This document shows, one piece after another, positions 19,171 to 54,629 of a stretch of 64,000 bases of DNA (position 1 is the stretch's first letter; each line of letters starts with the position of its first letter). Origin of the DNA: Squalus acanthias. Its lineage: Eukaryota. The translations under genes and the position numbers were made by a program. Below the pieces are notes generated by a model that worked only from the letters and a program-made list of their open reading frames with translations, searched no databases and was not told the origin of the DNA. Location of the stretch: contig CM059431.1 of assembly GCA_030390025.1 (NCBI GenBank), positions 149,298,001-149,362,000 on the forward strand, given 5' to 3'.

Positions 19171-19175
19171 CATTT

Positions 19176-22588: not shown

Positions 22589-22792
22589 GGGGAGCGTAGC
22601 GGGCCCAGGGGCCGTGCAGCCTGATCCAGCTCCTATTTTGTGTGTCCAATTCTGTTAGGTTCAGGAGATGGTTCTGTGATAGTAGATTGGCGGTTAGGAT
22701 CAGATCAGCCATGCTCTTATTGAATAGCGGAGCAGGCTCGAGGGGCCAATAGGCCTACTCCTGCTCCTATTTCTTATGTTCTTATATTCTTA
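22589..22792 (+). mobile_element. Short 3' tail of the young CR1 family, truncating the Penelope element
   Basis: Matches about 16415-16611. Confidence 0.85.
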
Positions 22793-23577
22793 TAAGCTTC
22801 GAACACCTAAAGGAGAGACACGAGTCTGCTTGCTAACAGCTGAACTGACTACAGGAATAGCAGGAGTCAACAGAAAAATGACTAGCGATAATTAGCTTAC
22901 ATCAGCAGAAAACTTCAAAGGAAATACATCTGAAAATGGGTAAAAAAATTGGATTTTCAAATGGGTTGATAGATTCGGTGTAAAGGGGCAACCCGATTCT
23001 TGTCTTCAGAGGCAGGCTCTGTAAGTCTACAACTCTTTGTATCTCGGGGATCAAGGTACTTGTATTTGAGTTTGGTGGATATCCTGGAATAAACTAAGAA
23101 CTGTAAAACTAGCTAAGTTAAGATTTGAGAATAAGGATCTCTGATAATAAAATTGTAAGATTTCTGTTTTTGGAACTGTTAATGTTGCGATTGAATCATC
23201 AACTGTAAATTACATGTCGGTTCATTAATAAATCTATTTCTTTTTAGAATTGTGTCAAATAGTATTTCTGTATCAAATTCGCAAACGTAATCTCTGTACA
23301 CTTTTTGGTGAGAAGTTGCAGAATTCTGGGGGAGTTTTCCGGACCCCCATAATATCCGGAATGTTACAGTCCAGCTAAACTGATTAAAAGTGCTATCTGG
23401 AGGATGGTAACATCTATCGGTTGTTCCTTTCCTTTAGTGAGAGTTAGTCTCGACCTTAACACCCAATTCATTGTCTTTAGGATTCGGCTACCTCAAACTT
23501 TAGTTGAAAGTGAATGTCTGAGGAATACGCCTGATCAGGTGTAGCCCTAAAGGGGTTAGGACAATAACTATCGCTTC

Positions 23578-26500: not shown

Positions 26501-27320
26501 CTCTTTAAATTGCTCCCTGATGGTGAGACTCCCTCTTTAATTGGAGTCCCTGATGCTGAAACACCCTCTTTAAAGGGGGCCTGATGGTGAGCCTCTTTAA
26601 AAGGGTTCCCTAATGGGGATACCCTCTCTTTAAAAGGGGTCCCTGATAGAAAGACTCTCTCTTTAAGAGGAGTCCCCGAGGGTGAGTCTCCCTCCTTAAA
26701 AGGGGTCCCTGATAGACTCTCTCTTTAAAAGTGGTCACTGATAGTGAGACTCCCTCTTTAATAGGGTTCCCTGATGGGAAGATTCCCTCTTTAAAAGGGT
26801 TCCCTGATGGTGAGACTCCCTTTAATAGGGGACCCTGATGGTGAGACACCCTGTTTAAAAGATTTCCCTGATGGTGAGACTCTTTCTTTAAAAGGGGTCC
26901 CTGATGGGTATACTCCCTCATTAAAAGGGGCCCCTGATGGTGAGACGCTCTCTTTAAAAGGGTCGCTGATGCTGAAACAGCCTCTTTCAAAGGGCTTCCT
27001 GATAGTGAGACTCCCTCTTTAAAAGTGGTCCTTGATGGCGAGACTCTCTCTTTAAAAGGGGTCCCTGACAGGATGACACCCTCTTTAAAATTGGTCCCTG
27101 ATGGTGAGATCATCATTAAAACGGGTACCTGATGGTGAGACTCCCTGTTTAAATGGGATCCTTGATGGTGAGACACTCTCTTAAAAAGGGGTCCCTGATG
27201 GTGAGACTCTCTCTTTAAAAGGTGTCCCTGATGGTGAGGCAATCTCTTTAAATGGGTCCCTGATGGTGAGACTCACTCTTTAAAAGGGGTCCCTGAGGGA
27301 GAGACTATCTCTTTAAAATA
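23578..27320. repeat. 33-bp tandem satellite, block 3
   Basis: Same unit, more degenerate. Confidence 0.96.
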
Positions 27321-30300: not shown

Positions 30301-30595
30301 CCGTATCCCATCCCCCTGCCAAGTTAGTTTAACCCCCCACCCACCACCCCCGCCACCCGCCAACTGTACTAGCAAACCACCCCGCAAGGATATTGGTCCC
30401 ATTCCGGTTCTGGTGCCATCCGTCCGACTTGTACATGTCACAACTTCCCCAGAAGCTGACCAGTGATCCAGGAAACTAAAGCCCTCCCTCCTGCAGCAAC
30501 TCTTTAGCCACGCATTCATCTATTCTATCATCCTATTCCTATGCTCATTAGCACGTGGCACCGGGATAATCCAGAGATTACAACCCTTGAGTTCC
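27323..30595 (-). mobile_element. CR1 LINE: end of ORF1 (esterase/SGNH-like), decayed ORF2 and 3' tail
   Basis: ORF1-like MNAWLKSCCRREGFSFLDHW (30220..30519); EN YFNA..DIVATTETW..GVYYRHPNS; RT YRPMSLTS..MDFSKAFD; tail is the reverse complement of GTCATAGAGTTATACAGC. Confidence 0.92.
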
Positions 30596-32302
30596 TGATA
30601 TATCGCACACACCTCACTGTAACACAATGATATACCCTGCACCACTCACTGTAACACTCTGTTATACCACACATCCATCACTGTAACTCTGTGATATACA
30701 CCACAGCCCCGAAGCACTCTTACATATCCCACACCCCTCACTGCAACTCTCTGATACACTACTCACCCAACACTGCAACACTCTGAATTCCCGCACAAAA
30801 CTCACTGTTAGACTCTGATTTACCCCACACCCCTCACTTTAACACTCTGTTATACCCCACACATCTCACTGTAGCACTCAATTTTTTCCCACAACCAATC
30901 TCTGTAACATTGATATACCTCACACCACTCACTGTAACACCCTATAATATACTCTACATCCTCACTGAAAAACACTCTGATATTCTCCACACCCCACACT
31001 GTAAGACTCTGAAGTACCCCACAATCCTCAGTGTAAAACTCCGAGATACCCCACAGCGCTCATTATAACACAATGCTATTCCCCACAGTCTTCTCTGCAA
31101 CAATCTGATGTACCCCACAACGCAGTAACCGTCTGATATATTCCACACCACTCAATGTAACGCTCTCTGATATACCCCACACCCGTCATGGTAACACTCT
31201 GATATTCCCCACACCGCTCACTGTAACACTATGAAATACTCCACACTTTAAGACGCTGATATAAACCACAAACCTCACTGTAACACACTGATAAACGCTA
31301 CACCACTCAATGTAATCCTCTGATATGTCACACATCCATAACTGTAACACTGTGACATACACCACACTCCCGACGCACTCTTACATATCCCACACCCCTC
31401 ACAGCAACACTCTGATGCAGGGCTCACCCAACACTGTAGCACTCTGATGTCCCGAAGAAACCTCACGATAACACAGTGGTATACCGCACACCACTCATTG
31501 TAAAACACTGATATTTCCCACACACCTCACTAGTAAAATTCTGATTTACCCCACACACCTCAATGTAACACTCTGATTTACCCCAGTTCCCTCACTGTTA
31601 CACTCTAATATATCCCACACCTCTCACAATAACACACTACTATTCCACACACTCTTCACAATAAAACGCCGATATACCACACACCGCTAAATGTAACACT
31701 CTGGTATGCACCAAACCTTTCAGTGCAATCCCCTGATATACCCCATACCCTCGTAAATCTCTTATATAGATCTCAGCACAAGCTGTAACACTCTAATATA
31801 CCCTACACCCTCACTGTAACACACTGATAAACACCACACGACACACTGTAACACAGTGATATACCCCCAACCCTCACTGTAACACTCTGATATACGCCAC
31901 ACACCTCACTGTAACACTCTGATATACCTCACACCACTCACTGTAACACACTGATATACTCCACACCCCTCACTGTAGCACACTGATATACTCCACACCT
32001 CTTACTGTAACACAATGATATATCCACACACCACTCACTGTAACACTCTGATATGCACACACCCATCACTGTAACACTCTGTTATACCCCAAACCCCTCA
32101 CTGTAACACAATGATATAAACCACACCCCTCATAGTAACTCTCTGATACACGCCACACCCCTCACTGCAACACTCTGATATCCTCCACACCATTCACTGT
32201 GACACTCTGATATAGACCACACCACTCACTGTAACACACTGATATACACCACACCACTCACTGTAACACACTGATATACACCGCAACCCCGAAGCAATCT
32301 TA

Positions 32303-33374
32303 CGACTGTAAAGGGCGTTGGTGAGACCACACCTGGAATACTGCGTCCAGATTTGGTCTCCTTTTTTAATGACGGATATACTTACATTGGAGACATTTCA
32401 GAGAAGGTTCACGAGGTTGATTCCGAAGATGACGTGGTTATCTTATGAAGAAAGGTTGATCAGGTTGTGGCTATACTCATTGTACTTTAGACGAATGACA
32501 GGTTATCTTATTGAAATATATAAGATTCTAAATGAGTTGGACAGCGTAAATGCATAGAGGATGTTTCCTTTCGTGGGGGAATCCAGAACATGGTGGCATA
32601 ACCCTTTGATATACCCTACACCCCGCACTATAATACTCTGATATACCCCACACCGCTCACTGTAACACTCTGATATACACCACACCCCGCACTGTAACAG
32701 TCATATATACCACACAGCCCTCACTGCAACCCTCTGATATACCATACACCCCTCACTGTAACACTTTGATATACCCTTAACCACTCACTGTAACATGTCT
32801 GATATACACCACATCCCTCATTGTAAAACTATTATATATCCACCAGCCCTCACTGTAACACGATGATATAGACCACACCCCTCACTGTAACACTCTGCTT
32901 TACCCCACACCCCTCACTGTAACACTCTGATACAAGCCACACCGGAAGCAATATTATGTATTCCACACCCCTCACTGCTACACTGATACACTACACACCC
33001 AACACTGTTACTATCTGATATCCCCCACTACCCTCATTGTAACACTCTGATTTACGCCACACCACTCACTGCAACACTGATATACCCCACAGGGTACCCT
33101 TTTAAATTGGAAATGAGGGGCAATTTCTTCACTCAGAGGCTCGTGAATATTTTGAAGTCACTTCCCCAGAGAGCTGTGAATGCTGTGTCAATGGATATAC
33201 TTCAGGTGGATTTAGACAGATTTTTAAACGATAAGGGAGGCATGGGTTATGGGGAGCGGGCAGAGATGTGGTGTTGAGGCAAAGATCAGATCAGCCATGA
33301 TCTTATTGAAAGGCGGAGCAGGCACGAGGGGCCAAATGATCTACTTCTTGTCCTACGTGTGATGTCTTTTGTCC
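32303..33374 (+). mobile_element. CR1 3' fragment split in two (32303-32603 and 33091-33374) by satellite
   Basis: The first piece (LVRPHLEYCVQ..) ends at SRTWWHN; the second resumes at PFKLEMRGNFFTQR and carries the CR1 tail. Confidence 0.85.
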
Positions 33375-34098
33375 TATATACACCATACTCCTCACTGTAA
33401 AACACTCGTATTCCGCACACTCTTCATGTAAAGCTTTGATATACTCTACACCACTCACTATAATATTCTGGTATACCACGCAACACTGACTGTAACACTC
33501 TGATACATATCACACTCTGGGCTGTTACTCCCCACACCACACACTTTAGTACTGATATACCTCGCACCACTCACTGTAAAACACTCTGATATACTGCACC
33601 CCACTCACTGTAACACACATTGATATACTCCTTAACCCACACTGAAGCACTCTGAAACACCCACATTCCTCACTTTAACACTCTGAAATACCGCACACTC
33701 CTCACGGTAAAAGTCTGATATCCCCCACACCGCTCACTGTAACACTCTAATATACCCCACAGCCCACACTGTAACACTCTGGTTTACCCCACACCGCTCA
33801 CTGTAAAACTCTGATATATCCCACACCCTTCATTGCAAAAGTCTGATTTACCACACATCCCTCAATGTAACAGTCTGATATACCCCACACCCCTCACTGT
33901 AACAGTCTGATATAATAGCATTCCTCACTGTAATACACTCTGATATATCTCACAGCCCTCACGGTAACACTCAGATATACCCTAAATCCCTCACTGTAAC
34001 ACTATGATATACTCCACACCACACACTGTAACACACTGATTTACCCAAGCCCCACCACTGTTACTGTCTGATTAACCCCACATCCCTCACAGTAACAC

Positions 34099-36395
34099 GA
34101 ATGGACTGGGATCAGCGAATTGTAGGAAAATCCACATCAGAGCAGTGGGATCCATTCAGAACGGAAATATAGAGAGTACAACGCCAAAATGTTCCCGTGA
34201 AGTTCAAGGGTGGGATCAACATGCGCAGGGATCCCTGGATGTCAAGGGAAAAACAAGAATGGATTGGGAGAAAAAGGGAGGCTTCTGGGCAGTTAGAAAG
34301 GACATAAAAAACAGTGGAAGCCCTAGAGGAGTATAGAATGTGCAGGTGGGAAACTGAAAAAGAAATTAGGAGAGCGAAGAGGGGGCATGAAAAAACACTG
34401 GCAGGCAAAATAAAGAAAAATCCCAAGGTGTTTTATAAGTATATTAAGGGCAAGAGCATAACCAGGGAAAGAGTAGGGCACATTGGGGACCAAAGTGGCA
34501 AGCTGTGTGTAGAGCTGGAAGATGTAGGTCAGGTTTTAAATGAATATTTTGCATCTGTGTTCACTATGGATATGGACGATGTAGGCATAGGTATCATGCA
34601 GGGGGATTGTGATATTGTTGAACAAATTAGTATTGAGAGGGATGAGATACAAGCGGTTTTAGCGGTCTTAAATGTGGCTAATTCCCCAGGCCCTGACGGA
34701 ATGTATCCCAGGCTGCTTTGTGAGGCAAGGGAGGAGATTGCAGGTGCTCTGACACAAATTTTCAGAACCTCTCTGGCCACAGGTGAGGTGCCAGAGAACT
34801 GGAGACCAGCTAACGTAGTACCATTTTTCAAGAAGTGTAGTAGGGACAAAGCAGGGAATTAGAGGACAGCGAGCCTAAAATCAGTGGTAGGCTCATTACT
34901 AGAACAAATTCATTCGGACAGAATTAGTCTCCACTTGGAGACGCAAGGAGTAATCAAGAATAGTCAGCATGGCTTTGTCAGGGGGAGATCATGTCTGGCC
35001 AATTTGATTGAATATTTCGAGGGGGTGACTAGGTGTGTGAATGAGGATAGTGCAGTTGATGTAGTCTACATGGACTTCAGTAAGGCTTTTGACAAAGTCC
35101 CACATGGGAGACTGGTCAAGAAGTTAAGTGTCCATACGATCCAGGGCAATTTGGCACATTGGATTCAAAATTGGCTTAGTGGAAGGAGGCAGATGGAATT
35201 GGTCGAAGATTGTTTTTGTGACTGGAAGCCTGTGTCCATTGGTGTACCGCAGGGATCGCAGGGTCCTTTGCTTTTTGTAGTGTACATTAATGATTTAGAT
35301 ATGAATGTAGGAGGTATGATCAGTAAGATCGTAGATGACACGAAAATTGGTGGAGTGGTAAATAGCGAGGAGGGAAGCCACAGGCTACAGTACGATATAG
35401 ACGAGATGATTAGATGGGCAGATCAGTGGCAAATGGAATTTATCCCTGAAAAGTATGTGGGGATGCATTTTGAGAGGACAAACAAGGCAAGGACATTCAC
35501 AATGAATGGTAGGATCCTAGGAACGACGGAGGATCACAGGGACCTTGGTGTGCATGAACATAGATCCCTGAAGGCAGTATAACAGTTTGATAAGCTGGTT
35601 AAAAAGGCATAATCGGTTACTTGCCTACATTACCAGAGGCATAGAATATAAGATTGAGAGGTCGCACAACACCAGGTTATAGTCCAACAGTTTTATTTGA
35701 AATCACAAGCTTTCGGAGCTATCGATTGCCCTCTCAATTTTGTCCACCCCAGTCCAACACCGGCATCTCCGCATCATAGAATATAAGAGCAGGGAGGTTA
35801 TGATGGAGCTGTAAAACACGCTAGTTAGGCCACAGCTGAAATACTGTGTGAAGTTCTGGTCACCACGCTATAGGACGGATGTGATTGCATTGGAGAGGGT
35901 GCAGAGGACATTCACCAGCATGTTACCTGGCCTGGAGCGCTTCAGCTATGAAGAGAGACTGGACAGGCTGGTGTTGTTTTCCTTGGAGCAGTGAACGCTG
36001 TGGGGGGACCTGATTGAGTTGTACAAAATTATGAGGGACATAGATAGGGTAGATAGAAAGGAACTTTTCCCCTGAGTACAGGGGTAAATAACCAGGGGGC
36101 ATAGTTTCAAGGTAAGGGGCAGGAGGTTTAGATGGGAATTGAGGAAAAAAAATTCACCCAGATGGTGGTTGGAATCTGGAACTCACTGCCTGAATTTGTG
36201 GTAGAGGCAGGAACCCTCACAACATTCAAGAAGCATTTAGATGAGCACTTGAAACGCCATAGCAACAAAGGCTACGGACCAAGTGCTGGAAAATGGTATC
36301 AGAATAGACAGGGCTTGATGGCCGGCGCGGACACGATGTGCCAAAGGGCCTCTTTCTGTGCTGTATAACTCTATGACTCAGTGACTCTATGACTA
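34099..36395 (+). mobile_element. CR1 LINE, 5'-truncated (same family as 27323-30595, opposite orientation)
   Basis: ORFs 34314..34862 and 34884..35582 (YMDFSKAFDKVPHG, GVPQGS, VDDTK); tail CTGTATAACTCTATGACT. Confidence 0.92.
35654..35774. mobile_element. ~120-bp Penelope-derived micro-insertion with a target-site duplication, inside the CR1
   Basis: CATAGAATATAAGA at 35640-35653 and 35775-35788. The insert is two family-B terminal pieces in opposite orientation. Confidence 0.8.
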
Positions 36396-37589
36396 TGATA
36401 TATGTCACACTCTGCGATGTTACTCTCCACACCACTCACTGTAATTCTGATATACCTCGCACCACTCACTCTAACACACTCTGATATAGTCCAGCCACTC
36501 ACTGTAACACACTCTGATATACTCCACACCCATCATGGTAAAACTCTGATATACCAAGCCAATCATTGTAACACTTTGATATCCGCCACAACCCTCACTG
36601 TAACACTGATTTACCCAAGCCCGTCACTGTAACACTCTGATACACCCCAAACCTCTCACTGTAACGCTCTGATATACCCCACGCACCTCACTGTAACACT
36701 GAGATATACCCCACACCCCTCACTGTAACACTCTGATACATGACATATTCTCGACGTTAGTACACCACACCAGTCACTATAGTACTGATATACCTCGCAC
36801 CACTCACTGTAACCCACTCTGATATACCCCACATCCCTGGCTGTAGCACTCTGATACATGCCTCACTCTGGACTGTTACACCCCACACCACTCACTGTAA
36901 GACTGATATACCTCACATCCCTCACTGTAGCACTCTGATACATGCCACACTCTGGACTGTTACTCCCCACGCCAGTCACTGTAGTACTGATATACCCCAC
37001 ACCCCTCACTGTAGCACTCTGATACATGCGACAAAATGGACTCTTACTCCTCACACCAGTTACTGTAATACTGATATACCCCAAATTACTCACGGTAATA
37101 CAGATATACATCGCACTATTCACTGCAATACTGATATACCTCGCACCACTCACTGTAATACTGATATACCCCACACTCACTCACTGTAGCACTCTGATAC
37201 ATGCCACACTCTGGACATTTTCTCCCCACACCACTCCCGGTAATACTGAATACAACACATCCCTCACTGTAACACGCTGATACATGCCACACTCTGGACT
37301 GTTACTCCCCACACCACACACAGTGATACTGATATATCTCGCACCACTCACTGTTGCCATTGCCACTTTAATTCCACGGGGTTCAATATTGGTAATATTT
37401 GATATTTTATCAAACACCTTTGAAAATAAAGGGAAAGTTTGAGTAATATCGATCATAAAACCATAGAATTGGTGCCCCAAGTTGTGTTGACAATTTGTTT
37501 AGCGATGCATGACACCCCGCTCTGACCACAGACATCGCCTGGTTTCAATCAGTAAATTTCAAAATCAGTGATTATATTGCCATTTTATT

Positions 37590-38200: not shown

Positions 38201-38231
38201 ATGATGATAATGATTTATAAATGGTGATAAT

Positions 38232-38970
38232 GGCCCAGAAATTGATCTCGCTCTGTTCCCGCGGGGGTAAGGAGCAGTCGCGATCTCTCACTCCGCGTTG
38301 GCTTTTTCAGATCCAGCTCGCACGAACTTGATGTTCTAGACATCAGCTGGGCAGTGCTTGCGTATCCCACCGGCGCAGTGAATTCGTGCGATCTGTGGGA
38401 TCACGTGACTCAGTTAGAGCCAATGGCAGCACACCATCTTCCATTCATAAGTTTCACATACGTGCTGTGAAAGCTATGAATCTTACACCCCCCAAAATAA
38501 CAGCTAAACCTCAATTAAATTAAAAAAAACATCACATTAATAAAATAAGTATAGTTAAATAAGTTAACCATTTTAAATAAAAAATTAAATGTTTGAAAAA
38601 ATTATAAATCTTTTAAAAAGTTATAAAAATAAACTTACCTATCTTTAAAGTCTCTAAAAATGATATACCTGTTAAAAAAAATTCAAAATAATAATTAATT
38701 CTCTACTTAACTTGTTAAAAGTGGGTCTTACTCCTCCTTTTTTCATTTCTAAAATCAGCCGTCCTCACCTGCGCGTCCAAAGCACTAAGTGCACAGCGTG
38801 CTCGCAACCTGTAGCGCGCACGCGGTGCACCGAGGAACCGCCCCCTTTTCCAAAGACCAAGTGCCGGTTTTCAGCGCATGCGCAGTGCATGCAGAAAACC
38901 GGCAATTGGAGAGAGAATACGCGAGAGTACGCAGTGCGTACTCTCGTGTAGCGGCATCAATTTTTGGCCC
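38232..38970. mobile_element. Non-autonomous TIR DNA transposon (MITE-like, possibly PIF/Harbinger), copy 1
   Basis: TIRs GGCCCAGAAATTGAT / ATCAATTTTTGGCCC with AAT on both flanks; second copy at 49004-50154. Confidence 0.7.
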
Positions 38971-38983
38971 AATGTTGTAACCT

Positions 38984-40389: not shown

Positions 40390-41290
40390 TCATCCTTTAA
40401 TGAATTTTACAGTAAGAGTGAAGGGATATTTCGCTACATTCTTCAACTGCTCTCTGAACTTAGTCTGGGTCATGGCATAAATCCCAGTATTTGTGCAGCA
40501 ACTCAGCATCTGCAGCATCAATCCCAATTCCATTAGATAAATAGGTGGATGTACAGAACCATAACCAAAAAAACATATCCGGGCCCATATATAAAACAAC
40601 GTAAAGATTGCCCATAACAGGATGAAGTTGCCGGAGATAACAAGCAGTAAAATAATAGATTTCCTGCGGCTCTCCATCTCTGGGTCTCTAGGACTGTCCC
40701 CACTGCTGGGACCCCGGAGTCTCCTGCGGGCTCTGCTGGACACTAATATGTGTCTGACGGTGACAGCATTGAGCAGCAGAATCACAACAAATGGGTCCCC
40801 GCGGTGAGAATATAATGAAGAAGCTCAATTGTTCCCCAGACCGTTGAATACACAGAATCCACTGTTACACCACAAAACCAGGGCATGTTGAAAAGCATAT
40901 ACAAATCTGTGAACATAAAATACCAGAAAATGTTCTTTGTACCGCTCAGCACAGTCACTGTTCCCAGAACCTCAGCCGCCGTTTTCTGGGTGCAATATTT
41001 AGTTGTCAGCTTCTGGTGACAAATGGCCACAAATCGATCAAATGTGAAAGTGACAGTGAACCAGACAGAACAGTCTGTGACTGCATAAAGCAGGACGGCA
41101 TGGATATTACACACGGGGATGGACTCCACGAAACTAAACTGTTCCCTAAATACAATCGGAATCTGCCTCAACATCAGATCAAGGATAACGACCAGCAGAT
41201 CCGCCGCTGCCATGGCAACCAGGTAGCGAGCGACACATTTAGAGAGACCGCACTTTCCCCGGGACAGGATCACAATCGTCACTAAGTTTA
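40390..41290 (-). pseudogene. GPR139-like: Second coding exon (end of TM1 to TM7 and stop) of a GPR139-like GPCR, with one -1 frameshift at about 40795
   Basis: Acceptor TTTCCCTTGCTCAAAG|TA (phase 1). NLVTIVILSRGKCGLS, YLVAMAAADLLVVI, TFDRFVAICH, then in a new frame ILLLNAVTVRHIL..RRKSIILL..SCCTNTGIYAMTQTKFR, TGA at 40390. With the 53.5 kb exon, 181+901+1 nt = 361 codons. A sequencing error in the C4 run is possible. Confidence 0.88.
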
Positions 41291-42604
41291 CTTTGAGCAA
41301 GGGAAATAAACGGGGACATTATACATCAGGCTGGGAGCAATAGCAGCAGATTGAAGGAATTCGGGGAGAAATCTGCAATGCATTAGTGACATTCAATGAT
41401 ATAATCTAATTCTATTACCCATGAAGCTGAATACAATGTTTATTGTAAGAATAGTCGGAAATACATTGTGGAATTAATAAATGAATCGGGGATAACAATA
41501 ACATGAAAGTAACAGATGTTTGATCAATGAGAGATTAGATGATAGCTCTACATTTAGCCCAGCAGACAAAAGCACCACCCGAGGTACCAGGGACACAAAG
41601 GATCAGAACTTCTCAGGAAGCCTTCGTGTCGCGGGATCAGTCAGCATTTGGAGCGGTGCAATTCGCCTCACTGCCCCTGTGTTAGTGAGGGGGAAATCCC
41701 GCTTAGATTCATGCTCCTGGTTAGAATATCTATTACATTTAGAACTGAAAATGAATGCAACGGCAAAATACAGAAACTGCAACCTTGGCGTGCAATAAAT
41801 ACTGTCAATTGCATTTAAAATGTATGGCTGTAATATGCAAGTGTAAGATAATAAATACAAGCGCACTGCAGTTATAAAGATAACTGGGTGTAAGAAGTGT
41901 TTAGAAGAGTGAGTTTTCTGCAGTTTTGTTGAAATACTCAAATTGTGGCTCATTGAAAGGAAGATTTTGCAAGTAACATTGCAAGGACTGGAATCTGAAA
42001 TAAAATAATTAGTTATCATTGACCAGGTAATAACCCACTAAATGTATTTATTTACATCATAATCAGGCGACTCATCCCACAGGCAACAAGCCGTCGAAGG
42101 CGTTCGGAAAGTATCTGAACACAAATGGAAGAGATTTATCCTTCTACTTTTTCACCTGTTGGTTTGCAACTTATGAAGAGAATATTAGTCGAGAAAATAT
42201 GAAAGGATTTCCTTATCCTCAGTACTTCAGTTCCAATCAGCTGGGGTTGTTTTTCGTGCAGCACAGCAGGAGACAATAGAGAATCACTCTGGTTCTCACT
42301 GAGAGATCCACTGAACTGTGTGAGGTGGGCATGGGCTCCAATTGTACATTCAAAACAAAGTTTGGAAATAAACGCATTGAAATATGGCTGACTGAACGTT
42401 TTCTGAGAATGTAAGTTATCATTGTAATCCTATTCTAACCTTCAGAGGCAGAGCCACTGATGCGGAGCTGGAGATGTTGGGAAATGAGACACTGACTGAA
42501 ACTGAATGATTAGCGGATATTTCAGACATTTAAAGATGTGGATGTGATCTGCCAGGATTCGTTCCTGTGACTCTGTGTCAGTAGCCATACCGAGCATTCG
42601 GTGA

Positions 42605-42750
42605 AAACAAAAACAAATTAATGCGGATGCTGGAAATCTGAAATGAGAAATTAAAATGGTTTAAATACTCAGCAGGTCAGGCAGCATCTGTGGAGAGAGA
42701 GAGAGAAATAACGTTTCAGGTCGATAATCTTTCGCCATTACTTGAAAATT
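42605..42750 (-). mobile_element. Penelope family A terminal fragment (decayed hammerhead)
   Basis: Reverse complement resembles 20010-20135 (GACCTGAAACGTT..CTCTCTCCACAGATGCTGCC). Confidence 0.7.
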
Positions 42751-42993
42751 CTCCTCAACCAAGACAACATTCTTCTGATCGGTTACAAATGTTCAGTGTA
42801 GATAGCAGAACGGAATTATTTCAGCAAAGAGTCTCGTGCAATATATTTTCTTGAGATGAATATAGAAAATTGAATCTTGAGAAAATGTAACTCCTTTCGA
42901 ATCCATGATGTGGAGATGCCGGTGTTGGACTGGGGTGGAGAAATGTGAGAAGTCGCACAACACTGGGTTATAGTCCAACAGCTTTATTTGAAA

Positions 42994-43030
42994 TCACAAG
43001 CTTTCGGAGCGCTGCTCTTTCATCAGGTGA
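42994..43030 (-). ncRNA. Minimal hammerhead ribozyme motif
   Basis: Reverse strand reads UCAC-CUGAUGA-A-AGAGC AGC GCUCC-GAAA-GCUU-GUGA. Confidence 0.65.
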
Positions 43031-43373
43031 AGTGAAGAGATGTATATCGGCACAGCATGTATAGTCAGAGAACACTGCCAGATGATTACAGTTAATCTTT
43101 CTCACTGCCCTCGGCAGAGAGATAATCACGGCAATCCAAGGTGTGGATGGTGTAAAAACAGGTCAGTCAGGAATAAATTACATCAAAGACAATGAGTTGG
43201 GGTCACAAGGGGTCAAATGTGGCAGATGCTGGTGTCTGTATGGAAAACAAAAAAACTTTTAGCGGGATTATCTCTCTGCCGAGGTGTGATAAAGGGGAGT
43301 TAGAAAGATTAACTGTAATCATATGGCAGTGTTCTCTGACTATATATTCTGTGCCAATATGAATCTCTTCAAT

Positions 43374-43410
43374 ACACCTGACGAAGGAGCAGCGCTCCGA
43401 AAGCTTGTGA
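43374..43410 (+). ncRNA. Minimal hammerhead ribozyme motif (best preserved copy)
   Basis: ACAC-CUGACGA-A-GGAGC AGC GCUCC-GAAA-GCUU-GUGA: perfect 5-bp stem II, stem I CAC/GUG. Confidence 0.7.
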
Positions 43411-43737
43411 TTTCAAATAAAGCTGTTGGACTATAACCTGGTGTTGTGCGACTTCTCAGATTTGTCCTTTAGAATCAACAGCCGGCAGCTGTCAGATGGG
43501 CTGGGGAATGAAAAGGAGGGAAATACAGTAAAACATGATATATAGAATTAAAAGCTGGATACAGAGACTTACCAGGGATACCGATAGCAGCGAGGATGTG
43601 CCAGAAATTTTAAACAAGAACACTTGCATTAACAAAGATGCAACAACTTGAAACACATAATACCATTAATAACTGAGTATGCCACGGTAAATAGGAAGAA
43701 TAATATTACAGAATTAATAACTGGCCATGTTACTTAA

Positions 43738-44623
43738 TAGGAACACTAACAGCAGCGAGAAGGGGCTAGAAAATGTTTTGTATATCCTCCCCTCCCCTTT
43801 CAGCATTCCGAAGGAACCGCACCCTCCACAACACGCTGGTCCACTCCTCAATCACCCCCAACATACACTTCCCCTCTCCTCGGCACCTTCCCGTGCAAGC
43901 GCAGAAGATGCGACGCCTGAACTTTTAACTTCTCCCTTCCCACTGTGCAGGGCCCCAAACACTCCTCCCAGATAAAACAGCGATTTACTTGTACTTCTTG
44001 CAAGTCAGTATACAGTATTCGCTGCTCAAGTTGCGGTCTACTATACACTGGGGAAAACAAATGCAGATTGGGTAATCGGTTTCTGAACACTGCCGTTCAG
44101 TTGGACTCGTGACTTCGAGCTTCCGGTCTCCTGTCACATAAATTATTTGCTCTCCCTCCCACTCTGACCTCTCTGTCCACGGCTTGATACAGCGTTCCAA
44201 TGAAGCTCAATTTAAGCTCGAGCAACAGCACCTCATCATTCTATTGGGCACTTTACAGCCTTCTGTACTCAACATTCAGTTCCGCAATTTCAGATCATAA
44301 TCTGGCCGCTGTTTTTTCAGGCGGCAGCTGCTGATGTTTCTACCATCCACATTTGCAACATTTAACCACTCTTCCTTTCCACATTATCACAGGCCATCAC
44401 TTTTGTTCCTTCGTTCCCTCACCCCCTTTTCCCAAAACCTGTACTTGCTTGAAATCTTTTACATCTCTCGCTTTTTCCAGTTCTGAGGAAGGGTCACAGA
44501 ACTGAAACGGTAACTCTCTTTCTCTCGCCACAATGCTGCCTGACATGCTGAGTGTTTTCACCATTTTATGTTGTTATTCCAAAGTATTATTGTTAACTGT
44601 CACTGTTCAAGTATACTTTCCAT
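43738..44623 (-). pseudogene. Destroyed GPCR first exon split by a Penelope fragment
   Basis: 5' part has ATG at 44623 (MESILEQ*QLTIILW). 3' part 43738-43786 reads DIQNIF*PLLAAVSVP with a dead donor (A|TTAAGT). Upstream 44680-44740 resembles the 5'UTR/TATA region of the intact exons. Confidence 0.65.
43787..44578 (+). mobile_element. Penelope family A 3' fragment (GIY-YIG remnant, degenerate hammerhead at about 44479-44515)
   Basis: Colinear with about 19220-20110. Confidence 0.85.
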
Positions 44624-44749
44624 AGAGATCCACAAACTCACGACATCCCTACTGTGTGAGGCTGGTGGCCTTTTTGCTGGAGGCATCGCGCTGATTGTAT
44701 GAGGTCACAGAGTGAAGGGAGCTACTTATTTAGAGCAGAGGAGGGCGTT

Positions 44750-46020
44750 TCCAAGGGGCCCCAAGATTAAACCGCTCCCGCCTCAGTACAGAAAATTGAC
44801 TCCCAGGGACGCCAAGATAACACTGCTCCCACCTGAGTCCAGGAATAGCATTCCCTGGGCAGCCTAGATTACACTGCTCCCGCATCAGTCCAGGAATATA
44901 ATTCCTAGGGACACCTGGATTACACAGCTTCCGCCTCAGTCCAGGAATATAATTCTTGGGGTCACCAAGATTGCACTGCTGCCTGCTCAGTCCAGGAATT
45001 TCATGTTGAGGGCCCACTAGATTATACGGCTCCCGCTTCAGTCCAAACATTTCATTTCTTGGGCCAGCGAGATTACACTGCTCCCATATTATGCTAGGAA
45101 TTTTATTCCCAGGGCTGCATCGATTACACTGCTGCTGACTCAGTCCTCGTATGTGATTCCGAGGGATGCCTCGATTTCACTGCTGGCGCCTCAGTTCAGG
45201 AATTTAATTCCCAGGCCAGCCAAGATTGCACTGTTCCTGCCTCAGTCTAGGAAATTAAACACCTGGGCCGCCTAGATGAGAATGCTCCCGCCTCAGTTCA
45301 GGAATTTCACTCTCAGGGCGCCGACATTACACTGTTTAGAACATAAGATCATAAGACATCGGAGCAGGAATAGGTCATTTGTCCCCTAGAGCCTGCTCCG
45401 CCATTAAATAAGATTATGGCTGATCTGATCTTGGCCTCAACTCCACTTCCCTGCCCACTCTCCATAACTGTTGACTCCCTTATCGTTCAAAATTCTGTCT
45501 ATCTCCACCTTAAATATATTCAATGATCCAGCCTCCACAGCTCTCTGGGGAAGAGAATTCCAAAGATTCACGAACCTCTGAGAGAAGAAATTCTTCCTCA
45601 TTTCCGAATTAAAAGGGTGCCCCCTTATACTGAAATTATGCCCCCTAGTTCTAGATTCTACCACGAGGGGAAACATCCTCTCTGCCTCTAACCTGTCAAG
45701 CCCCTTCAGAATCTTAGATGTTTCAATAAGATCCCCTCTCATTCTTCTAAACTACAATGTGTATAGGCCCAAACTGTTCAACCTTTCTTCATAAGATAAC
45801 ATCTAGGTGAGAATGCTCCCGCCTCAGTCCAGGAATGTCATTCCCAGGGCCATCGAGATTACACTGCTCCCGTCTCTGTCGAGGAATTCCATTCCCTGTG
45901 CCTCCTACATAATACTGCTTCTGCCTCAGTACAGGAATTTCATTCCCAGGGCCGACTGGATTACACTGCTCCCACCTCAGTCCAAGAATGTCAATCCCAG
46001 GGCAGACTAGATTACACTAC
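44750..46020. repeat. 51-bp tandem repeat (GATTACACTGCTCCCGCCTCAGTCCAGGAATTTCATTCCCAGGGC..), interrupted by CR1
   Basis: Unit starts at 44765, 44816, 44867; about 11 units to 45335 and about 4 units at 45806-46020. Confidence 0.9.
45337..45800 (-). mobile_element. CR1 3' end
   Basis: ORF 45437..45742 (MRGDLIETSKILKGLDR..NFFSQR..NLWNSLP). Confidence 0.88.
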
Positions 46021-46024
46021 ACCG

Positions 46025-47700
46025 GCCTTTGTCCATGGTCCATGGTGAAATGGGCCGTTACATGGCAGAAAAAATTGAACACAGAGAAGTGTGAAGTGAT
46101 ATATTTTGGTAGGAAGCATGAGAAGAGGCAATATAAACTGAAGTGGGTGCACGATCAGACAGACCTGGGGTGCACTTATGCAATTTTTTGAAGGTGCAGG
46201 ACAAGTTGCGACAGATGCACATCAAGCATGCAGAGTTATTTTTAGAGCTGAGCAGGTTAAGAAACATAGAATAATAGATTCACAGAGCTGTACGGCACAG
46301 AAGGAGGTCATTCGGCCCATTGTGTCTGCACCGGCGCAAAAGGGCTATCCAGCCTAAACACACTTTCCAGCTCTTGTTCCGTAACCTTGCAAGCTGTGCC
46401 ACTTCAAGTGCACATCCAAGTACTTTTTAATGTGATGAGGGTTCCTGCCTCTACCACTCTTTCGGGCAGTGAGTTCCAGACTCCCATCATCCACTGGGTA
46501 AAACTAATTCTCAACTCGCCTCGAATCCTTCTACCATTTAGGTTAAATCTATGCCCCTGACTATTGACCACTCTGCAGAGGGAAATAGCTGCTCCCTATC
46601 CGATCTGTCTAGGCCGCTCATACTTTTAAGCACCTCAATTAAATCTTCCCTCAGCCTCCTCTGTTACAAAGAAAGCAATCCCAGACTGTCCAATCTATCC
46701 TCATAGCTAAAATTGTCCAGTCCTGGCAACCTCCTAGTAAATCTCTTCTGTTCCCTCTCTAGATGTGGCCTAACTAGTGTTTTATACAGTTCTACCATCT
46801 CCTCTCTTTTGTTATATTCTATGCCTCGGCTAATAAAGGAGAGTATCTGTATACCTTCTTACCCACAATATCTACCTGTCCTGCTATCGTCTGGGATCCA
46901 TGGGCATGCACTTCAAGGTCGCTCTGTTGCTCTGCATTTCTCAGTATCCTACCATTTATTGTGTATTCACTTGCCTTGTTAGCCTTCCGCACTTCTCCAG
47001 ATTGAATTCCATCTGCCCCTTTTCTGCCCTCCTGAAAACTTCCTGCAGGCTACAGCTTTCTTCCTCACTATCAACCACATGGCCAATTTATGTATCATCT
47101 GCAAACGTTTTAATCATGCCCCAAAATTGAGGTCTAAATCATTGATGTCTACCACAAAAAGCAAGGCACCTGTTACTGAGCGCTGCAGAACCCCGCTGAA
47201 AACAGTCTTCCAGTCACAAAAACACCCATCGACCATTATCCTTTGCTTCCTGACACTGAGCCAATTTTGAATCCAACTCGGATCCAATGCTCTTTTACTG
47301 TTTTGACCAACCTCTGTCATTTGGGACCTTGGCAAAGGTCTTGCTGATATCTATGTGGATTACATCAAATGCACTACCCTCATCGAACCTCCTCGTTACT
47401 TCATCATAAAATTCAATCAAATTACTCAGACACAACCTTCTCTTGCTTCTCTTAACAGGCTGGGATACATTTCACCGGCCCTGGCGAATTATCGACATTC
47501 AAAGATGCAATATCTCTTAATACATTCTCTGTCTCTATGCTAACCACATCTAATATTTAACATTCTTCCTCTTTAACTACAATGTCAGCATTGACCCTCT
47601 TTTCTGTGAAGACAGACACAAAGTATCCATAAGAACCATACACATGTCTTCCGCCTCCACACACAGGTTAACCTTTTGCTCTCCAATCAGCCCTAATTCA
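46025..47700. mobile_element. Decayed CR1 fragments (plus 46025-46260; minus about 46265-47700)
   Basis: NTEKCEVIYFGRK on the plus strand; WIQNWLSVRKQRIMVDG..SGVLQ on the minus strand. Confidence 0.75.
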
Positions 47701-49003
47701 ACATTGCAGGTAATGACGCATTTAGAAAAGAGAGACAGAGGCAAAAAGCGGAGTCGGAGTAGCTGTACATGTTAGGCATAACATAATGGCAGTAGAAAAA
47801 AGTGACGCAGGTGTCAGCAAGACAGAAATATAATTCATGTGGATTATGATGAAAGGTAATAAAGGATCAATCACAGCAATAGGGTTAGTCAACAGACCAC
47901 CTAATAAGGAAGAGAGATGGAGGAAGAAATATGCAGACAAATTAGGGAAATTAGTAAAAAAAAACACTTAGAATAATAATCATGGGGGATTTCAAATACC
48001 AGATAATAATTGGAAAAATGAGGCAGGTAAAGCGGATAAGAGAATGGAGTTCCTACCATGTGTACAAGAATCCTTTCTCACCCAATATGTAAAAAGCTCA
48101 ACAAGGGAGGATTCTCTATTGGATCTTTTAAGGGGGAATGAACCAGATCAGATAATCGAAGTAAAAGTAGGGGAACATCTAGGCAATAGTGACCATAATA
48201 AAAGACACTTGAAGATAATAATTAAGAATAACATAGGTATGCCAAAGACTAGGGTATTAGATTGGAGAACAATTGATTCTGAGGGGCTGAGATAGGAAAT
48301 TGACAACATCAGCAAATAATGAAGTAGAACAACAATAGAAAACATTTAAAAGTGTTAAAGATAGTCCAGGAAAGTATATTCTGCTGATAAACAAGAACAA
48401 GCAAAACACTAATGAGACACCGTGGAAAAATAAAGCCGCAAGGGAGAAATTGAGCACAAGCAAATCGGCATACATTAAGTACATGGACAGCAGGGGAGAG
48501 TATGATAAGGGAGAATATGGCGGGATATGAAGAGTTGTCAAAAAAACAATTAGGAAGGCATACAGTAACTATGAAATTAAATTATTAAGGAATATAAAAC
48601 AAAATATTAAAATACTTTACAGCCATATCAATACAAAAAGGAAGTTCAGAAAGGGAATAGGACCACTAAGAGATGGAGAGGAATCGACCACCGGCAGCAA
48701 CATAGAGTTGGCAGAGATATTAAATAATTATTTTGCTTCAGTATTTACCAGGGAGATAGAAGAGGTGGAGAAGACCTCGGATGATGAGATTAGTAATGAG
48801 TTAACAGCATTTAAAATAAAATGAAGAGATATACTAAATAAATTAATCAAACTGAAAGAGGATATAACCCCTGATGTCGACGGATCACATCCTCGCATTT
48901 TAAGAGAATCTACGGAAGAGATACTAGAGGCATTACTACACATATTTAATAACACGTTAGTAAAAGTTGTAGTGCGAGAGGACGGGCGTTTAGCTAACAT
49001 AAC

Positions 49004-50154
49004 GGCCCAAAATTTGGTGAGGAAGCCAACGTGCGAGGGTAAGGCTTCCCCGCGATCTCTCACTGCGCGTTGGCTTTTTCAGTTCCAGCTCGCACGAACT
49101 TGATGTTCTGGACAGCTGCTGTGCAGGGCTTGCGTATCCCACAGGCGCAGTTAATTCGTGCGAGCTGTGGGATCACGTGACTCAGTTAGAGCCAATGGCA
49201 GCACACCATCTTCCATTCATAACTTTCACAAAAGTGCTGTGAAAGCTATGAATACTATAGCCCCCCAAAAGAACAGCTAAACCTCAATTAAATTTAAAAA
49301 AACCATCACATTAATAAAATAAGTATAGTTAAATAAATTAACCATTTTAAATAAAAAATTTAATTTTTAAAAAAAATTTAAAATCTTTTAAAAAGTTATA
49401 AAAATAAACTTACCTGTCTTTAAAGTCTCTAAAAAAGATATACCTGTTAAAAAAATTCAAAATAATACTTAATTCACTACTTACCTTGTTAAAAGTTGGT
49501 CTTACTCCTCCTTTTTTTATGTGTAAAATCTGCCATAATTACCTGCGCGTTGAAACCACTAAGTGCACTGCATGCGCGCAGCCTGTAGCGCGCACGCGGT
49601 TCACTTAGGGCAACACGGTGGCATAGTGGTTAGCACTGGTGCCTCACAGCGCCAGAGACCCGGGTTCGAATCTGACCTCGGGTGACTGTCTGTGTGGAGT
49701 TTGCACATTCTCCCCGTGTCTGCGTGGGTTTCCTCCGGGTGCTCCGGTTTCCTCCCACAGTCCAAAAATGTGTGGGTTAGGTTGATTTGGCTATGATAAA
49801 TTGACCCTTAGTGTCAGGGGGGATTAAATATGTGGGGTTATGGGGATAGGATGGGATATGTTAGGGGGAATTAAATACGTGGGGTTACGGGGGTAGGGTG
49901 GGATATGTGTACTGTGGGGATTAAAGCAGGGACATGGTACTGGATTTGGATGATCAGTCATGATCGTATTGAATGGCGGAGCAGGCTCGACGGGCCGAAT
50001 GGCCTACTCCTGCTCCTAGATTCTATGTTTCTATGCCCCCTTTTCCATTCACCAAGTGCCGGTTTGCAGTGCATGCAGAAAACCGGCAATTGGAGACAGA
50101 ATACGCGAGAGTACACAGTGCGTACTCTCGCGTATCAAGACAAATTTTGGGGCC
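49004..50154. mobile_element. TIR element copy 2 (with nested SINE)
   Basis: Ends GGCCCAAAATTTG / CAAATTTTGGGGCC; body colinear with 38232-38970. Confidence 0.75.
49608..50035 (+). mobile_element. HE1-like V-SINE (tRNA head, V domain, CR1/HER1-type tail)
   Basis: A box TGGCATAGTGG, B box GGTTCGAATC, core TGTGTGGAGTTTGCACATTCTCCCCGTGTCTGCGTGGGTTTCCTCCGGGTGCTCCGGTTTCCTCCCAC. Tail matches the CR1 end at 4555-4640. Confidence 0.85.
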
Positions 50155-51591
50155 AATATCTATATCTAAGAAGGGAGATAGAACATGTCCAGGGAACTAT
50201 AGGCCTGTCAGATTAACATCGGTGGTAAGAAAAATTATCGAGAAAATATAAGAACATTTAGGAATGACAAATAGAATAATGAATAGTCAGCATGGATTTC
50301 AAAAGGGAAAGTCTTGCCTGACCAAACTAAGTGAATGAAGACCTAACAGTAAGTGTAGACGAAGCTGATGCATTCGATGTAATCTATCTAGATTTTCAAA
50401 AGGCCTTCTATAAGGTACCACATAGAATAAGAAATAAGGTCAAGGAATGCGGAGTCAGAGGACAAGTAGCAGAATGGATAGCTACCTGGCTTCAAGACAG
50501 AAAGCAGAGCGTATTGGTAAAGGGTATCTATTCAGAGTGGCAGATGGTGGGTAGTGGTGTTCTACAATGATCAGTGCTGGGACCACTGCTGTTCACAATT
50601 GATATTAACGATTTAGACTTTGGAATTAAAAACACAATTTCTAAAATGGAGGGGATGGCCATTGCTGAGGAGGACTGCAACAAATTACGTGGAGACATTA
50701 GTAAACTTGCAGAATGGGCATATAATTAGCAGATTAAATTCAACACAGATAAAAGTGTGGTATTACATTTTGGTAAGACAAATAGTGAGGTCACATATTA
50801 CTTGGACAATAAGAATCTAAAATGGGGTTGAGGAGCAAAGGGATCTGGGAGTACAAATACACAAATCACTGACAAGTATCGACACACGTTCACAAGGCCA
50901 AACAAAAAGCAAACCAAGCACTACGGATTATTTCCAGAGGGATAGAATTGAAATGTAGTGAAGTTATGCTAAACTTGTATTGAACCTTTGTGTGAACCTG
51001 GTTAGACGACACTTGGAGTATTCTGTGCAATTCTGGTCGTCATGTTATAAAAAAAAAGGATATAGAGGCACTGGAGAGGTTGAAGAGAATATTTACAAAG
51101 AAGACACCAGAAATGCGAGGGTGCACCTATCAGGAAAGGATGAACAGGCTGGGCCTCTTTTCTCTTGAATGAGAAGGCTGAGGTGTGACCTATTAGAGGT
51201 CTTTAAAATCATGAAAGGTTTTCATAGAGTAGATACAGAGAAAGTGTTTCCACTTTTGGAGAAGAGCAAAAGTACAGGTCATCAATATAAGATAGTCACC
51301 AAGAAATCAAATAATGAATAAAGAATACATGACTTCATCCAGAGTGTGGTGAGAATGTGGAACTCGCTACCACAGGGAGTGGTTGAAGCGAATTGTATAG
51401 ATGCATTTAAGGGGCGGTTAGATAAGCATATGAGGGAGAAGGAATAGAAGGTTATGCTGATAGAATTAGATGAGGAAAGACGGGAGGAGGCTCGAGTGGA
51501 GCATAAACATCTGCATAGACTAGTTGAGACAAATGGCCTGTACGCTCTCTAATTACTAGTGGACTATAGATTTGAGTATCCCATCCTTTTT

Positions 51592-52055
51592 GTCAGCTGT
51601 GGCTCAGTTGGTGGCACATTCACCTCTCAGTCAGAAAGTTGTGGGATAAAGTGCCACTCCAGGGACCTGAGCACATAAAGCTAGGCTGACACTCCAGTGC
51701 AGTGCTGAGGGAGTGCTGCACTGTCGGAGGTGCCGTCTTTCGGATGAGACGGTAAACTGAGACCCCGTCTGCTCTCTCAGGTGGAGGTAAAGGAGCACAT
51801 GGCACTATTTCGAAGAAGAGCAGGTGAGTTATCAACGGTGTCCTGGCTATTATTTATCCCTCAATCAACATAACAAAACAGATGACCTGGTCGTTATCAC
51901 ATTGCTGTTTGTGGGACCTTGCTGTGCGCAAAATGACTGCCGGGTTTCGCACATTACATCAGTGACTCTACTTCAAAAAGTATTTAATTGTCTGCAAAGC
52001 ACTTGGAGACGTCCGGTGGCCGTGAATGGCGCTATATAAATGCAAGTCTTTCCTT
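51592..52055 (+). mobile_element. DeuSINE-like SINE (paralogue of 452-885)
   Basis: GTGCTGAGGGAGTGCTGCACTGTCGGAGGTGCCGTCTTTCGGATGAGAC core; GGCGCTATATAAATGCAAGT tail. Confidence 0.78.
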
Positions 52056-53554
52056 TAATTTTATTCTTTTTTTGAACATATTTGCTCTGAACCCTAACTA
52101 TCTCCTCCTTAAATGCCTCCCATTGCTCTGACACTGATTTACATTCAAGTAGCTGTTTCCAGTTCACTTTTGCTAAATCGCATATCAGCTTAGTAAAATA
52201 CTCCTTTTCCCGATTGAAAGCTTTTACACCAGATCTAACGTTGTCCTTTTTCATGAGGGGAGATTTAATATAGATGATCAAAATTTTTATTGGGATTTGA
52301 TAGGGTGCATAATCGAATTATTTTCCAGTGGCAGAATGACACCGTTTTAAGGTAATAGGATAAAAGAACCAGAGGAGAGATGAGGAGAATTCTCTTCATG
52401 CATTGAGTTGCTGTGATCTCGAATGCACTGTCTGAGAACGTGCTGGAAGTAGATTCAATAGCAACTTTCGAAAGGGAATGGAATAATAGTTGAAGGAATA
52501 CTTTTTACAGGGCTCTGGCTAAAGAGTAGGAGTAATGATACAGCTCTGCTAAAGTGATGTCACGGACACGATCGGCTGAATGTCCTCCTTCTGTGCTGTA
52601 CCATTCGATTATTCTATGAGCAAGAGACATAAGGAAAGAAGAGGGAGAGAGAGTGACAGAGAGAAAGAAAAATAGAGACAGAAAGACTGGGAGAGGTACA
52701 GCAGGGAAGACATGTAATTAAAAGGGGAATTGGATAAATACTTGAAGGGTAACAATTTGCAGGCCTATGGAAAAAGGACTCGGGAATGGGACGAATTGGA
52801 GGGTTGAGGCCATGGTGGGATTGGATCTTAAGGATGAGAATATTCAGATCGAGGCATTTCCAAATCTGGAGCAAATGTTTCTCAGCGAGCAAAAGGATGA
52901 TGGGTTAACGGGACATGATGAGTGTTAGGATATGGGCAGCAGAGCTCTGGATGAGCTCTAGTTTATGGAGGCTTTTAAATGTGTGGCCAGCAAGGAAAAT
53001 ATTGGAGTAGTCGTGTCAGGATTTAACAAAGGCACGGGTGAGGGTTTATGCAGCGGAAGGGCTGAGTCAGGGTGGAGACGATCGATATTATGGAGGTGCC
53101 AGTAGGCTGGACTGATGATTCAGAGGATATGAGTTCGGAACTCAGCTCAGGGTGAAAGAAAATGCCGTGGCTGTGAACAGTCTGGTTCATCTGCAGACAT
53201 TGGCCAGGGAGGGGGACTGAATTGTTGCATAACAATTGATTTTTTGTCGAGGACAGAAGACAATGGCTTTGGTCTTCCCAAGACTGAAATGATAAACACA
53301 ATAACACAGTGAGACCTGGTTTTACAGATCTAATTGCTGGATGTAGAGATTTAAATGTAACACCAACAGCAGCAAAAATGAGAGCGTAACTTACGAGAAT
53401 AGTAATACAGCATGCAAAGTTTTTCAGAGTTAATAGGTGGTTACAGAGACATACCAGGAACAGCAATCGCATCAAGGAGGGGAGAGTAAAAGGCAAGAAG
53501 AGTAATGCAGTTAAACAAAGTTTATAGACATAATAGCTGAATACAGAAACTTAC

Positions 53555-53735
53555 CAGGAACGCCAACAGCAGCAAGGAGGGGGTAGTAAATGAATTGAAT
53601 AATCATAAGTGCGAACTGGATCTGTTGTTCTAATGATAGTTCATCATAATGTACAGACAAATATTCAACCACCCAGGATATACTCCTGACCATTGTTGTA
53701 ACATTCCAATCTACTGTTCTCAGCTTCTGATCCAT
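53555..53735 (-). CDS. GPR139-like: First coding exon of a GPR139-like GPCR; probable partner of exon 40390-41290 (intron about 12.3 kb)
   Basis: ATG at 53735; MDQKLRTVDWNVTTMVRS...IQFIYYPLLAAVGVP; donor G|GTAAGT, phase 1. G+TA gives Val, reading AVGVP-V-NLVTIVIL. Confidence 0.82.
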
Positions 53736-54629
53736 TGTTGTAACATTCCAATCTACTGTTCTCAGATTCCGGCTCCCTCTCTGTGGAACATCGTGCTGAT
53801 TCCTATTAGTACCGCAGCTGATGCTCTCACTGACGCTATGGTATAACACATTGAAAGGAGTCCCTTATTAATAGAAGAGTGAAACCCTGCACTGATGCAA
53901 TTAGGGTCCATGGAGAATGACATTAATTACAGTCACTGAACAAACAGCTTCAGTTAACCCGTTGAGACTGACATTAATCGTAGTCAATGAACAAACAGCT
54001 TCAGTTAACCCTTTTCAATCCAGCAGGTTTTGTAGCACAGTAGAGTAGAATATTTCCGCGGTCGGGGTGGTCTGTATCAGGATTTATGAGGGAAGGAATG
54101 ATGGAAATAGCGCATGATCTGTCCAGAATCTTTCAATCCACCTTGGATATTGGAGCGGTGCCGGAGGATTGTAGGGTTGCAGGTGTTACACACAGTTTAA
54201 AAAAGGAGAGAGGGATAACCCCTGTAACTATAGGCCTGTCAGGCTAACGTCGGTGGTGCGGGAACTTCTCGAGGCCATATTCCCGGAGAAAATTAACTGT
54301 CACTTGGAAAGAAACATGGATTAATAATTGACAACGATCACGGACATGTTAACGGCAAAGTGTGAATGACAATCTTGATTGAGTTCTTTGATGAAGTAAT
54401 GGAGATGGTTGATGAGTGTAGTTTGGTTGACGCTGTTTATATGGACTTTAAATGCATTTGATAAAGTTCATTGAATAAACCTGTTAGGACCAAAGGGTCA
54501 GTGGCAGAATGGATTTGACATTGGCTTAGGGACAGAAAACAGAGAGTAGTGGGGAATGTTTGTTGTTCAGCGTGGTGGGAAGTATACACGGGGGACCTCC
54601 AGGAGTCGCTATTCGGACCTCTAAACTTA

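Follow-up and report, generated by a model that had tools for sequence, protein, structure and literature searches.

A candidate first-exon hybrid in a shark GPR139-like receptor array, preserved as a young pseudogene

A 64,000-nucleotide stretch of the Squalus acanthias genome (GenBank assembly GCA_030390025.1, contig CM059431.1, positions 149,298,001 to 149,362,000 of the forward strand; hereafter the window, within which all positions are counted) contains one second exon and four first exons of a class A G-protein-coupled receptor (GPCR) of the shark 'probable GPR139' family, all on the minus strand. Their arrangement is best explained as a hybrid gene, now a young pseudogene, in a tandem array of shark GPCR genes that have two exons each and turn over by birth and death. 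Specifically, we assign a probability of roughly one half to a history in which a long-class head, meaning a promoter with its exon 1, ended up in front of a gene of the short class and formed a hybrid that would have worked until a recent frameshift.

Exon 2 (40390-41290, 901 nt, minus strand) extends from the end of the first transmembrane helix (TM1) to the C terminus, yields a 7tm_1 match, ends at a natural stop (40392-40390) and is preceded by a good polypyrimidine tract and AG acceptor (41291-41330, minus strand). Two first exons precede it, a distal one (D, 53555-53735, minus strand) and a proximal one (P, within 43738-44623); of the first exons upstream of exon 2 in the window, only D is intact. 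The two remaining first exons, A2 (8290-8470, minus strand), which is intact, and A1 (2384-2564, minus strand), have no exon 2 between them, and an exon 2 belonging to A1 would lie to the left of the window. A search of all six frames with a family hidden Markov model (HMM) found neither a second exon 2 nor a remnant of one in the window.

The proximal exon is dead. The sequence-only reading had listed two stops, a GT-to-TT donor and a Penelope insertion, and all three are seen here. The 5′ part of P (44579-44623, minus strand) carries the ATG and one stop (MESILEQ-stop-QLTIILW), and the 3′ part (43738-43786, minus strand), which is of the short class (DIQxIYYP type), carries the other (DIQNIF-stop-PLLAAVSVP). 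Between them sits a decayed Penelope-like retroelement fragment of 792 nt (43787-44578, plus strand), which is 79-81% identical to other copies in the window, matches a GIY-YIG-type open reading frame elsewhere in the window (tblastn E 1e-22) and reaches E 9e-4 against Pfam GIY-YIG, narrowly short of the curated cut-off. The donor of P reads CCTA/TTAAGT (the slash marks the exon boundary), with TT at 43737-43736 and the final exon base altered as well, and is followed by degenerate tandem copies of the exon 1 end (43505-43737, minus strand). The last of these copies retains GTAAGT at 43572, but no open frame leads into it. A second, intact GT donor was considered as a rescue of P or as the end of an internal exon and was rejected, because the exons that the two candidate acceptors would give are out of phase, and one of them carries a stop in the frame examined. 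Profile scores place P in the short class (35.7 bits, versus 18.8 for the long class). What persists at P is a whole head, comprising satellite, promoter-like stretch, exon and exon-end repeats. Its 5′ untranslated region (UTR) and AT-rich promoter-like stretch (44624-44740, minus strand) show distant homology (~69%) to those of D, and directly upstream of the promoter is a 51-bp minisatellite (44764-46018), split by a long interspersed nuclear element (LINE) fragment at 45335-45792 and found upstream of P only, not upstream of D, A1 or A2.

With respect to the distal exon, the earlier claim of an intact phase-1 exon joining exon 2 in frame was borne out. D comprises 181 nt (60 codons plus 1 nt), is open throughout, ends at a consensus donor (CCTG/GTAAGT) and scores 110 bits against the long-class profile versus 44 against the short. 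Its homology with A2 runs from 55439 to 50504 at 78-84%, with a further short piece at 48664-48715. Within this block, the 5′ UTR and promoter-like region (53736-53990, minus strand) is ~90% identical to the 2.4- and 8.3-kb heads (A1 and A2) in the best 200-nt bin, and the start of the D intron (50504-53554, minus strand), which opens with three tandem copies of the exon end and donor, is 78-82% identical to the intron behind A2. From the 48664-48715 piece to the P satellite at 46018 the sequence carries LINE fragments, and no breakpoint stands out; the intron directly upstream of exon 2 showed no homology above shuffles to the introns behind D or A2. The distal head had also been described as duplicated, but D is not a duplicate of P: the two are only 66-69% identical over promoter, exon end and downstream repeats, and both head classes occur in Heptranchias, Heterodontus and Pristiophorus. 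As a separate observation, every head in the window is trailed by tandem repeats of ~100 bp that copy the end of exon 1 together with its donor (53320-53590, 8036-8325, 2130-2419 and 43505-43784), some with an intact GTAAGT, which could possibly serve as decoy or alternative donors.

The sister heads A1 and A2 form a tandem duplication (window 1-10972, period 5,906 bp, 99.88% identical) of a long-class promoter and exon 1 without exon 2. Over 5,068 nt, 4 substitutions and a single 2-nt indel separate them, and they encode identical peptides. Either the head was duplicated very recently on its own, or the assembly has duplicated it. Comparison of D with this sister sequence over residues 16-44 of the ectodomain (53604-53690 versus 8339-8425) gave a proportion of nonsynonymous differences (pN) of 0.39 and of synonymous differences (pS) of 0.10, with flanks at ~0.18 (Fisher p=0.027, for a segment picked after inspection). 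This pattern suggests that both were working exons under diversifying selection. D contains one N-glycosylation sequon, and its DWNVTTM unit (53686-53769) is repeated in tandem over 42 bp (2 x 21); among relatives the copy number ranges from one to about eight (P0121), and the number of sequons varies with it.

In terms of the receptor family as a whole, the first half of exon 2 gave 1,744 protein matches at E<=0.001 among 2,252 candidates, with all named matches among the best 120 listed coming from sharks or rays, and the best identity over exon 2 was 76-78% (~298 aa), which places it within the family. For comparison we fetched 205 relatives, dropped 8 for short length or poor alignment and set aside 46 without a recognisable exon 1. 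Of the 151 that could be classed, 119 have a long head with DWNVTTM repeats, like D, and 32 a short DIQxIYYP head, like P; the classes were assigned automatically, with a few errors (P0059 has no label, and P0187 probably belongs to the short class). The sequence-only reading had presented a longer, glycosylated N terminus as a novelty. It is the majority state of the family, with sequons in 103 of the 119 long heads and in none of the 32 short ones.

The junction formed by D and exon 2 (AVGVP/VNLVTIVIL) was likewise described earlier as seamless, and the in-frame join is real. It is no evidence for a partnership of these two exons, however, because the whole family shares it: two exons meeting in phase 1 inside TM1 (YYP...GVP/VNL) are the family arrangement, which D and exon 2 also show, exon 2 begins with [VMLFI]N in 146 of the 151 relatives, exon 1 ends in [VIF]G[VI]P in 91, and the exact AVGVP/VNLVTIVIL string occurs in 10, with both exon 1 classes. 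At the sequence level, then, any head would fit any exon 2. Reassortment among relatives is also hinted at by discordant gene models. Exon 1 tails are <60% identical in 6 of 199 pairs whose second exons are >=88% identical, and the reverse holds in 5 of 126; these pairs collapse to about five cases, among them what seems to be a faulty model (P0184) and an exchange between long and short heads (P0038 versus P0056/P0066). Such models are suggestive only, as automatic annotation can mis-join exons. Candidate swaps or mis-joins of this kind were seen in Heterodontus and Heptranchias (P0030/P0060, P0038/P0056, P0092/P0064 and P0153).

Exon 2 itself had been credited with a single lesion, and one lesion in 901 nt is indeed what we find. 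That lesion is a frameshift in TM5 (40795-40802, minus strand), a net loss of 1 nt at a G run (40800-40795) that leads to a premature stop at 40784-40782, and the joined gene is not intact now: the frame running from D into exon 2 stops at 229 aa, short of an intact seven-helix reading frame. The locus as assembled is a pseudogene. The decay would seem to be real and recent. A proline beside the frameshift that is present in 186 of 186 relatives is an alanine here, and five further changes (T21A, C92H, K96T, V107E in TM4, and L118T) occur in 0 of 186. These private changes favour decay over a homopolymer error, since a slip would produce neither the Pro-to-Ala change nor the other substitutions.

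Apart from this recent damage, exon 2 appears to have been as constrained as its intact relatives. It departs from conserved columns at 5 positions, versus a median of 6 among 44 intact lineages when counts are weighted by lineage, and 27 of the 44 are as high. An apparent excess of decay in the unweighted count (8 departures versus a median of 4, with 14 of 119 relatives as high) was removed by this control, and even the unweighted departures cap neutral decay at ~2.6%. The contrast with P is marked. There are 3 frame-breaking lesions in 94 nt of P and 1 in the 901 nt of exon 2 (indicative p=0.003 by length), and stops alone, weighted by opportunity, give an indicative p=0.023. The insertion in P is ~20% diverged from the other copies in the window, or ~10% per lineage if the copies share a source, and 10% neutral divergence, with indel rates calibrated on the D/A2 intron, predicts ~7 breaks in exon 2, for which P(<=1)=0.006. 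Taken together, the lesion contrast (p ~0.003-0.02) and the conserved-column counts uphold the claim that exon 2 remained under constraint long after P had died.

These observations can be assembled into a history that is best told in order. Exon 2 would originally have worked with the short-class head P, 2.4 kb away. A long-class head, D, with its promoter, exon 1 and ~5 kb of intron but without an exon 2 of its own, would then have been placed upstream, either by a deletion between repeats that removed the D exon 2 or by a head-only duplication. The shortest path would be one event between tandem units, a deletion or an unequal crossover, that leaves D, P and the exon 2 native to P; the A1/A2 pair, if real, shows how spare heads arise. 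As all heads end at the same phase-1 position, D could have spliced in frame to exon 2 over 12.3 kb. The subsequent long decay of P beneath a constrained exon 2 follows the relative ages of their lesions, and D, by presumably supplying the promoter and N terminus, may have made P dispensable. Finally, the TM5 frameshift and a few damaging changes, as assembled, would have reached exon 2 only recently, and a transcript from D through exon 2 would now encode a 229-aa four-helix fragment. What the DNA itself shows is the anatomy, the splice compatibility, the relative ages and the frameshift; the splicing and the order of events are our reconstruction. A search of sequencing runs gave 21 candidates, of which none contained half of the sequence words (best share 0.21) and none was listed as RNA. 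The replacement of one first exon by another, as originally put forward, thus agrees with the anatomy and the timing but not with D as a duplicate of P, and a swap of D for P is plausible and of a known kind.

Several observations weigh against this hybrid history. The lesion statistics were prompted by the very observation that they describe, which makes their p values indicative, and the intactness of D is weak evidence by itself, with P(0 breaks)=0.17 at 10% divergence. Heads past position 64000 would fall outside the view. By identity, the nearest relatives of exon 2 have long-class heads (a single sawshark cluster fills the top 9 rows, at 76-78%), which would fit D as its native partner. 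Exon 2 sequences also cluster largely by species, so that the young appearance of exon 2 might also stem from gene conversion by living paralogues, without any selection here. Three exon 2 trees, with 122, 198 and 42 rows, gave no supported placement of exon 2; in a quick tree it joined 19 long-class rows (Shimodaira-Hasegawa-like approximate likelihood ratio test, SH-aLRT, 84), and this grouping was lost in the careful 42-row tree. Mapped on the exon 2 tree, head class switches 12-13 times; at least 3 of these switches are forced by starred branches in the quick tree and only 1 in the careful 42-row subset.

The clustering by species and the repeated head-class changes point to frequent sequence exchange, and thereby to a recent patchwork in which the P gene had long been dead, the exon 2 of a living paralogue was copied or crossed in lately, D lately lost its own exon 2, and the D-exon 2 combination was never, or only briefly, selected. 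The near-identical A1/A2 duplication, suggesting ongoing rearrangement, and the already broken state of exon 2 agree with such a patchwork. It needs at least two recent events, however, where the hybrid history needs one older event, and no conversion tract is visible, with one exon 2 in the window; we therefore consider it possible but somewhat doubtful. The long-class neighbours of exon 2 lend themselves to a different account without any replacement, in which D and exon 2 simply make up a normal gene of the long class, and P is a passenger, a cassette with a head that arrived or stayed behind in their intron and decayed. Most relatives are of the long class, and the timing is accounted for just as well. 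Yet the careful tree does not support the long-class grouping, and the retention of an entire head at P counts against a passenger. Moreover, any single crossover or deletion that yields the order D, P, exon 2 would retain the exon 2 native to P, so that an insertion or a second exchange would be needed. On balance we regard this account as unlikely.

Two further possibilities concern the assembly. Base loss at a homopolymer run is a typical long-read error, the TM5 frameshift lies at a G run, and overall constraint on exon 2 is normal, all of which would suit an assembly error or a null allele in a living receptor encoded by D and exon 2, whichever of the histories above produced it. The changed invariant proline next door and the five substitutions found in no relative make this improbable in our estimation. 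It is still less credible, and in our view very unlikely, that the order of D, P and exon 2 reflects a mis-join or false duplication in a repeat-rich array. Such an origin might be suspected from the interval between D and P, which is mostly LINE, satellite and transposon, and from the few differences between A1 and A2, which could be a haplotype duplication. Nevertheless, the window is without N gaps, and 12 kb falls within the span of long reads.

Building from the hybrid history, a more general and rather speculative proposal, which we think unlikely, is that promoter and exon 1 heads act as interchangeable modules across shark GPR139-like clusters, with spare heads gathering upstream of a shared exon 2 and splicing to it, and that this locus is the fossil of one completed short-to-long swap. 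If true, it would amount to a variable-first-exon system of the UGT1A or protocadherin type in a GPCR, in which a new expression pattern and a positively selected N-terminal ectodomain are swapped onto the same helical core. The single locus carries little weight, being a young pseudogene in a family of hundreds shaped by a known process. Since the old first exon and its probable replacement are both preserved, it does offer a clean place to test head swapping. The more interesting object is the shark family, whose large receptor repertoire may be diversifying by modules, as hinted by the rapid change of the ectodomain and by the discordant exon pairs.

The remainder of the window is rich in repeats. 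Minisatellite arrays of 33 bp (10580-27318) and 32 bp (30595-37354), broken up by LINE and Penelope-like elements, span the space between the two receptor loci, and a nearly intact CR1/L2-like LINE with a 793-aa open frame lies at 13621-16002, encoding what we take to be endonuclease and reverse transcriptase motifs. Two element copies at 38230-38973 and 49005-50157 are 90% identical over 573 nt, the second holding other insertions, and resemble a DNA transposon that is non-autonomous and has inverted ends. The 90%-identical block that they share (38261-38830 and 49033-49604) was considered as a leftover flank of the exon 2 that D would have lost, and was rejected in view of this resemblance.

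With respect to known systems, the closest counterparts are the elasmobranch 'probable G-protein coupled receptor 139' models of Heptranchias, Heterodontus, Pristiophorus and others (automatic RefSeq/UniRef names), which have the same exon junction and both head classes. The copy described here differs in its frameshift and in having two heads before one exon 2, a layout whose frequency protein records cannot give. Our search of open-access papers found no account of a shark GPR139-like expansion. In the portion available, a vertebrate GPCR survey names GPR210A/B beside GPR139/142 with sharks unmentioned (PMC6504862), and a search for the term 'GPR1' in the accessible part of a catshark sensory-genomics paper was without match (PMC11979771). 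Human GPR139 (PDB 7VUG, 9M42) is the best solved-structure match of the family member P0007 (E 4e-11, 45.9 bits). According to the available part of one report (PMC7318219), the human gene has two exons, like the shark family, and the true human and zebrafish GPR139 share 70% identity; a 20-residue human segment aligns with YYPLLAAVGVPVNLVTIVIL. At 45.9 bits, P0007 falls short of the ~70% identity that marks true GPR139 orthologues. Because the match is distant and true GPR139 is strongly conserved, the name is best treated as a nearest-hit label and not as a sign of orthology.

Tandem first exons before shared exons are known from the UGT1A, GCNT2 and PCDH clusters, where, in the part of the source available (PMC1885805), some first exons are dead (pseudogene or relic), turnover follows birth and death, and the variable exons are under positive selection. 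The likeness lies in first exons arrayed in tandem upstream of a shared exon, with D and P before exon 2, and A2 and A1 uninterrupted by an exon 2. The difference is that such clusters hold many living first exons with transcripts, at least two being needed for the type, whereas here P is dead, D is the only intact head upstream of exon 2 in the window, the evidence is genomic, and exon 2 is multi-copy. In the chicken BG cluster, a same-strand tandem array, two promoter/5′ classes have been reassorted with 3′ ends by unequal crossing-over or deletion, and the hybrids, as far as the excerpt goes, arise without obvious pseudogenes (PMC4046983), whereas at the shark locus the displaced head stays as a relic in the intron. 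At Arabis alpina PEP1, a full and a partial gene copy in tandem produce two full-length transcripts, both of them demonstrated in the portion available (PMC3527215); in Squalus one of the two heads is dead, and the comparison is with genomic DNA. Hybrid genes and dead first exons are thus already known from other clusters, and the swapping of parts is ordinary in tandem gene families.

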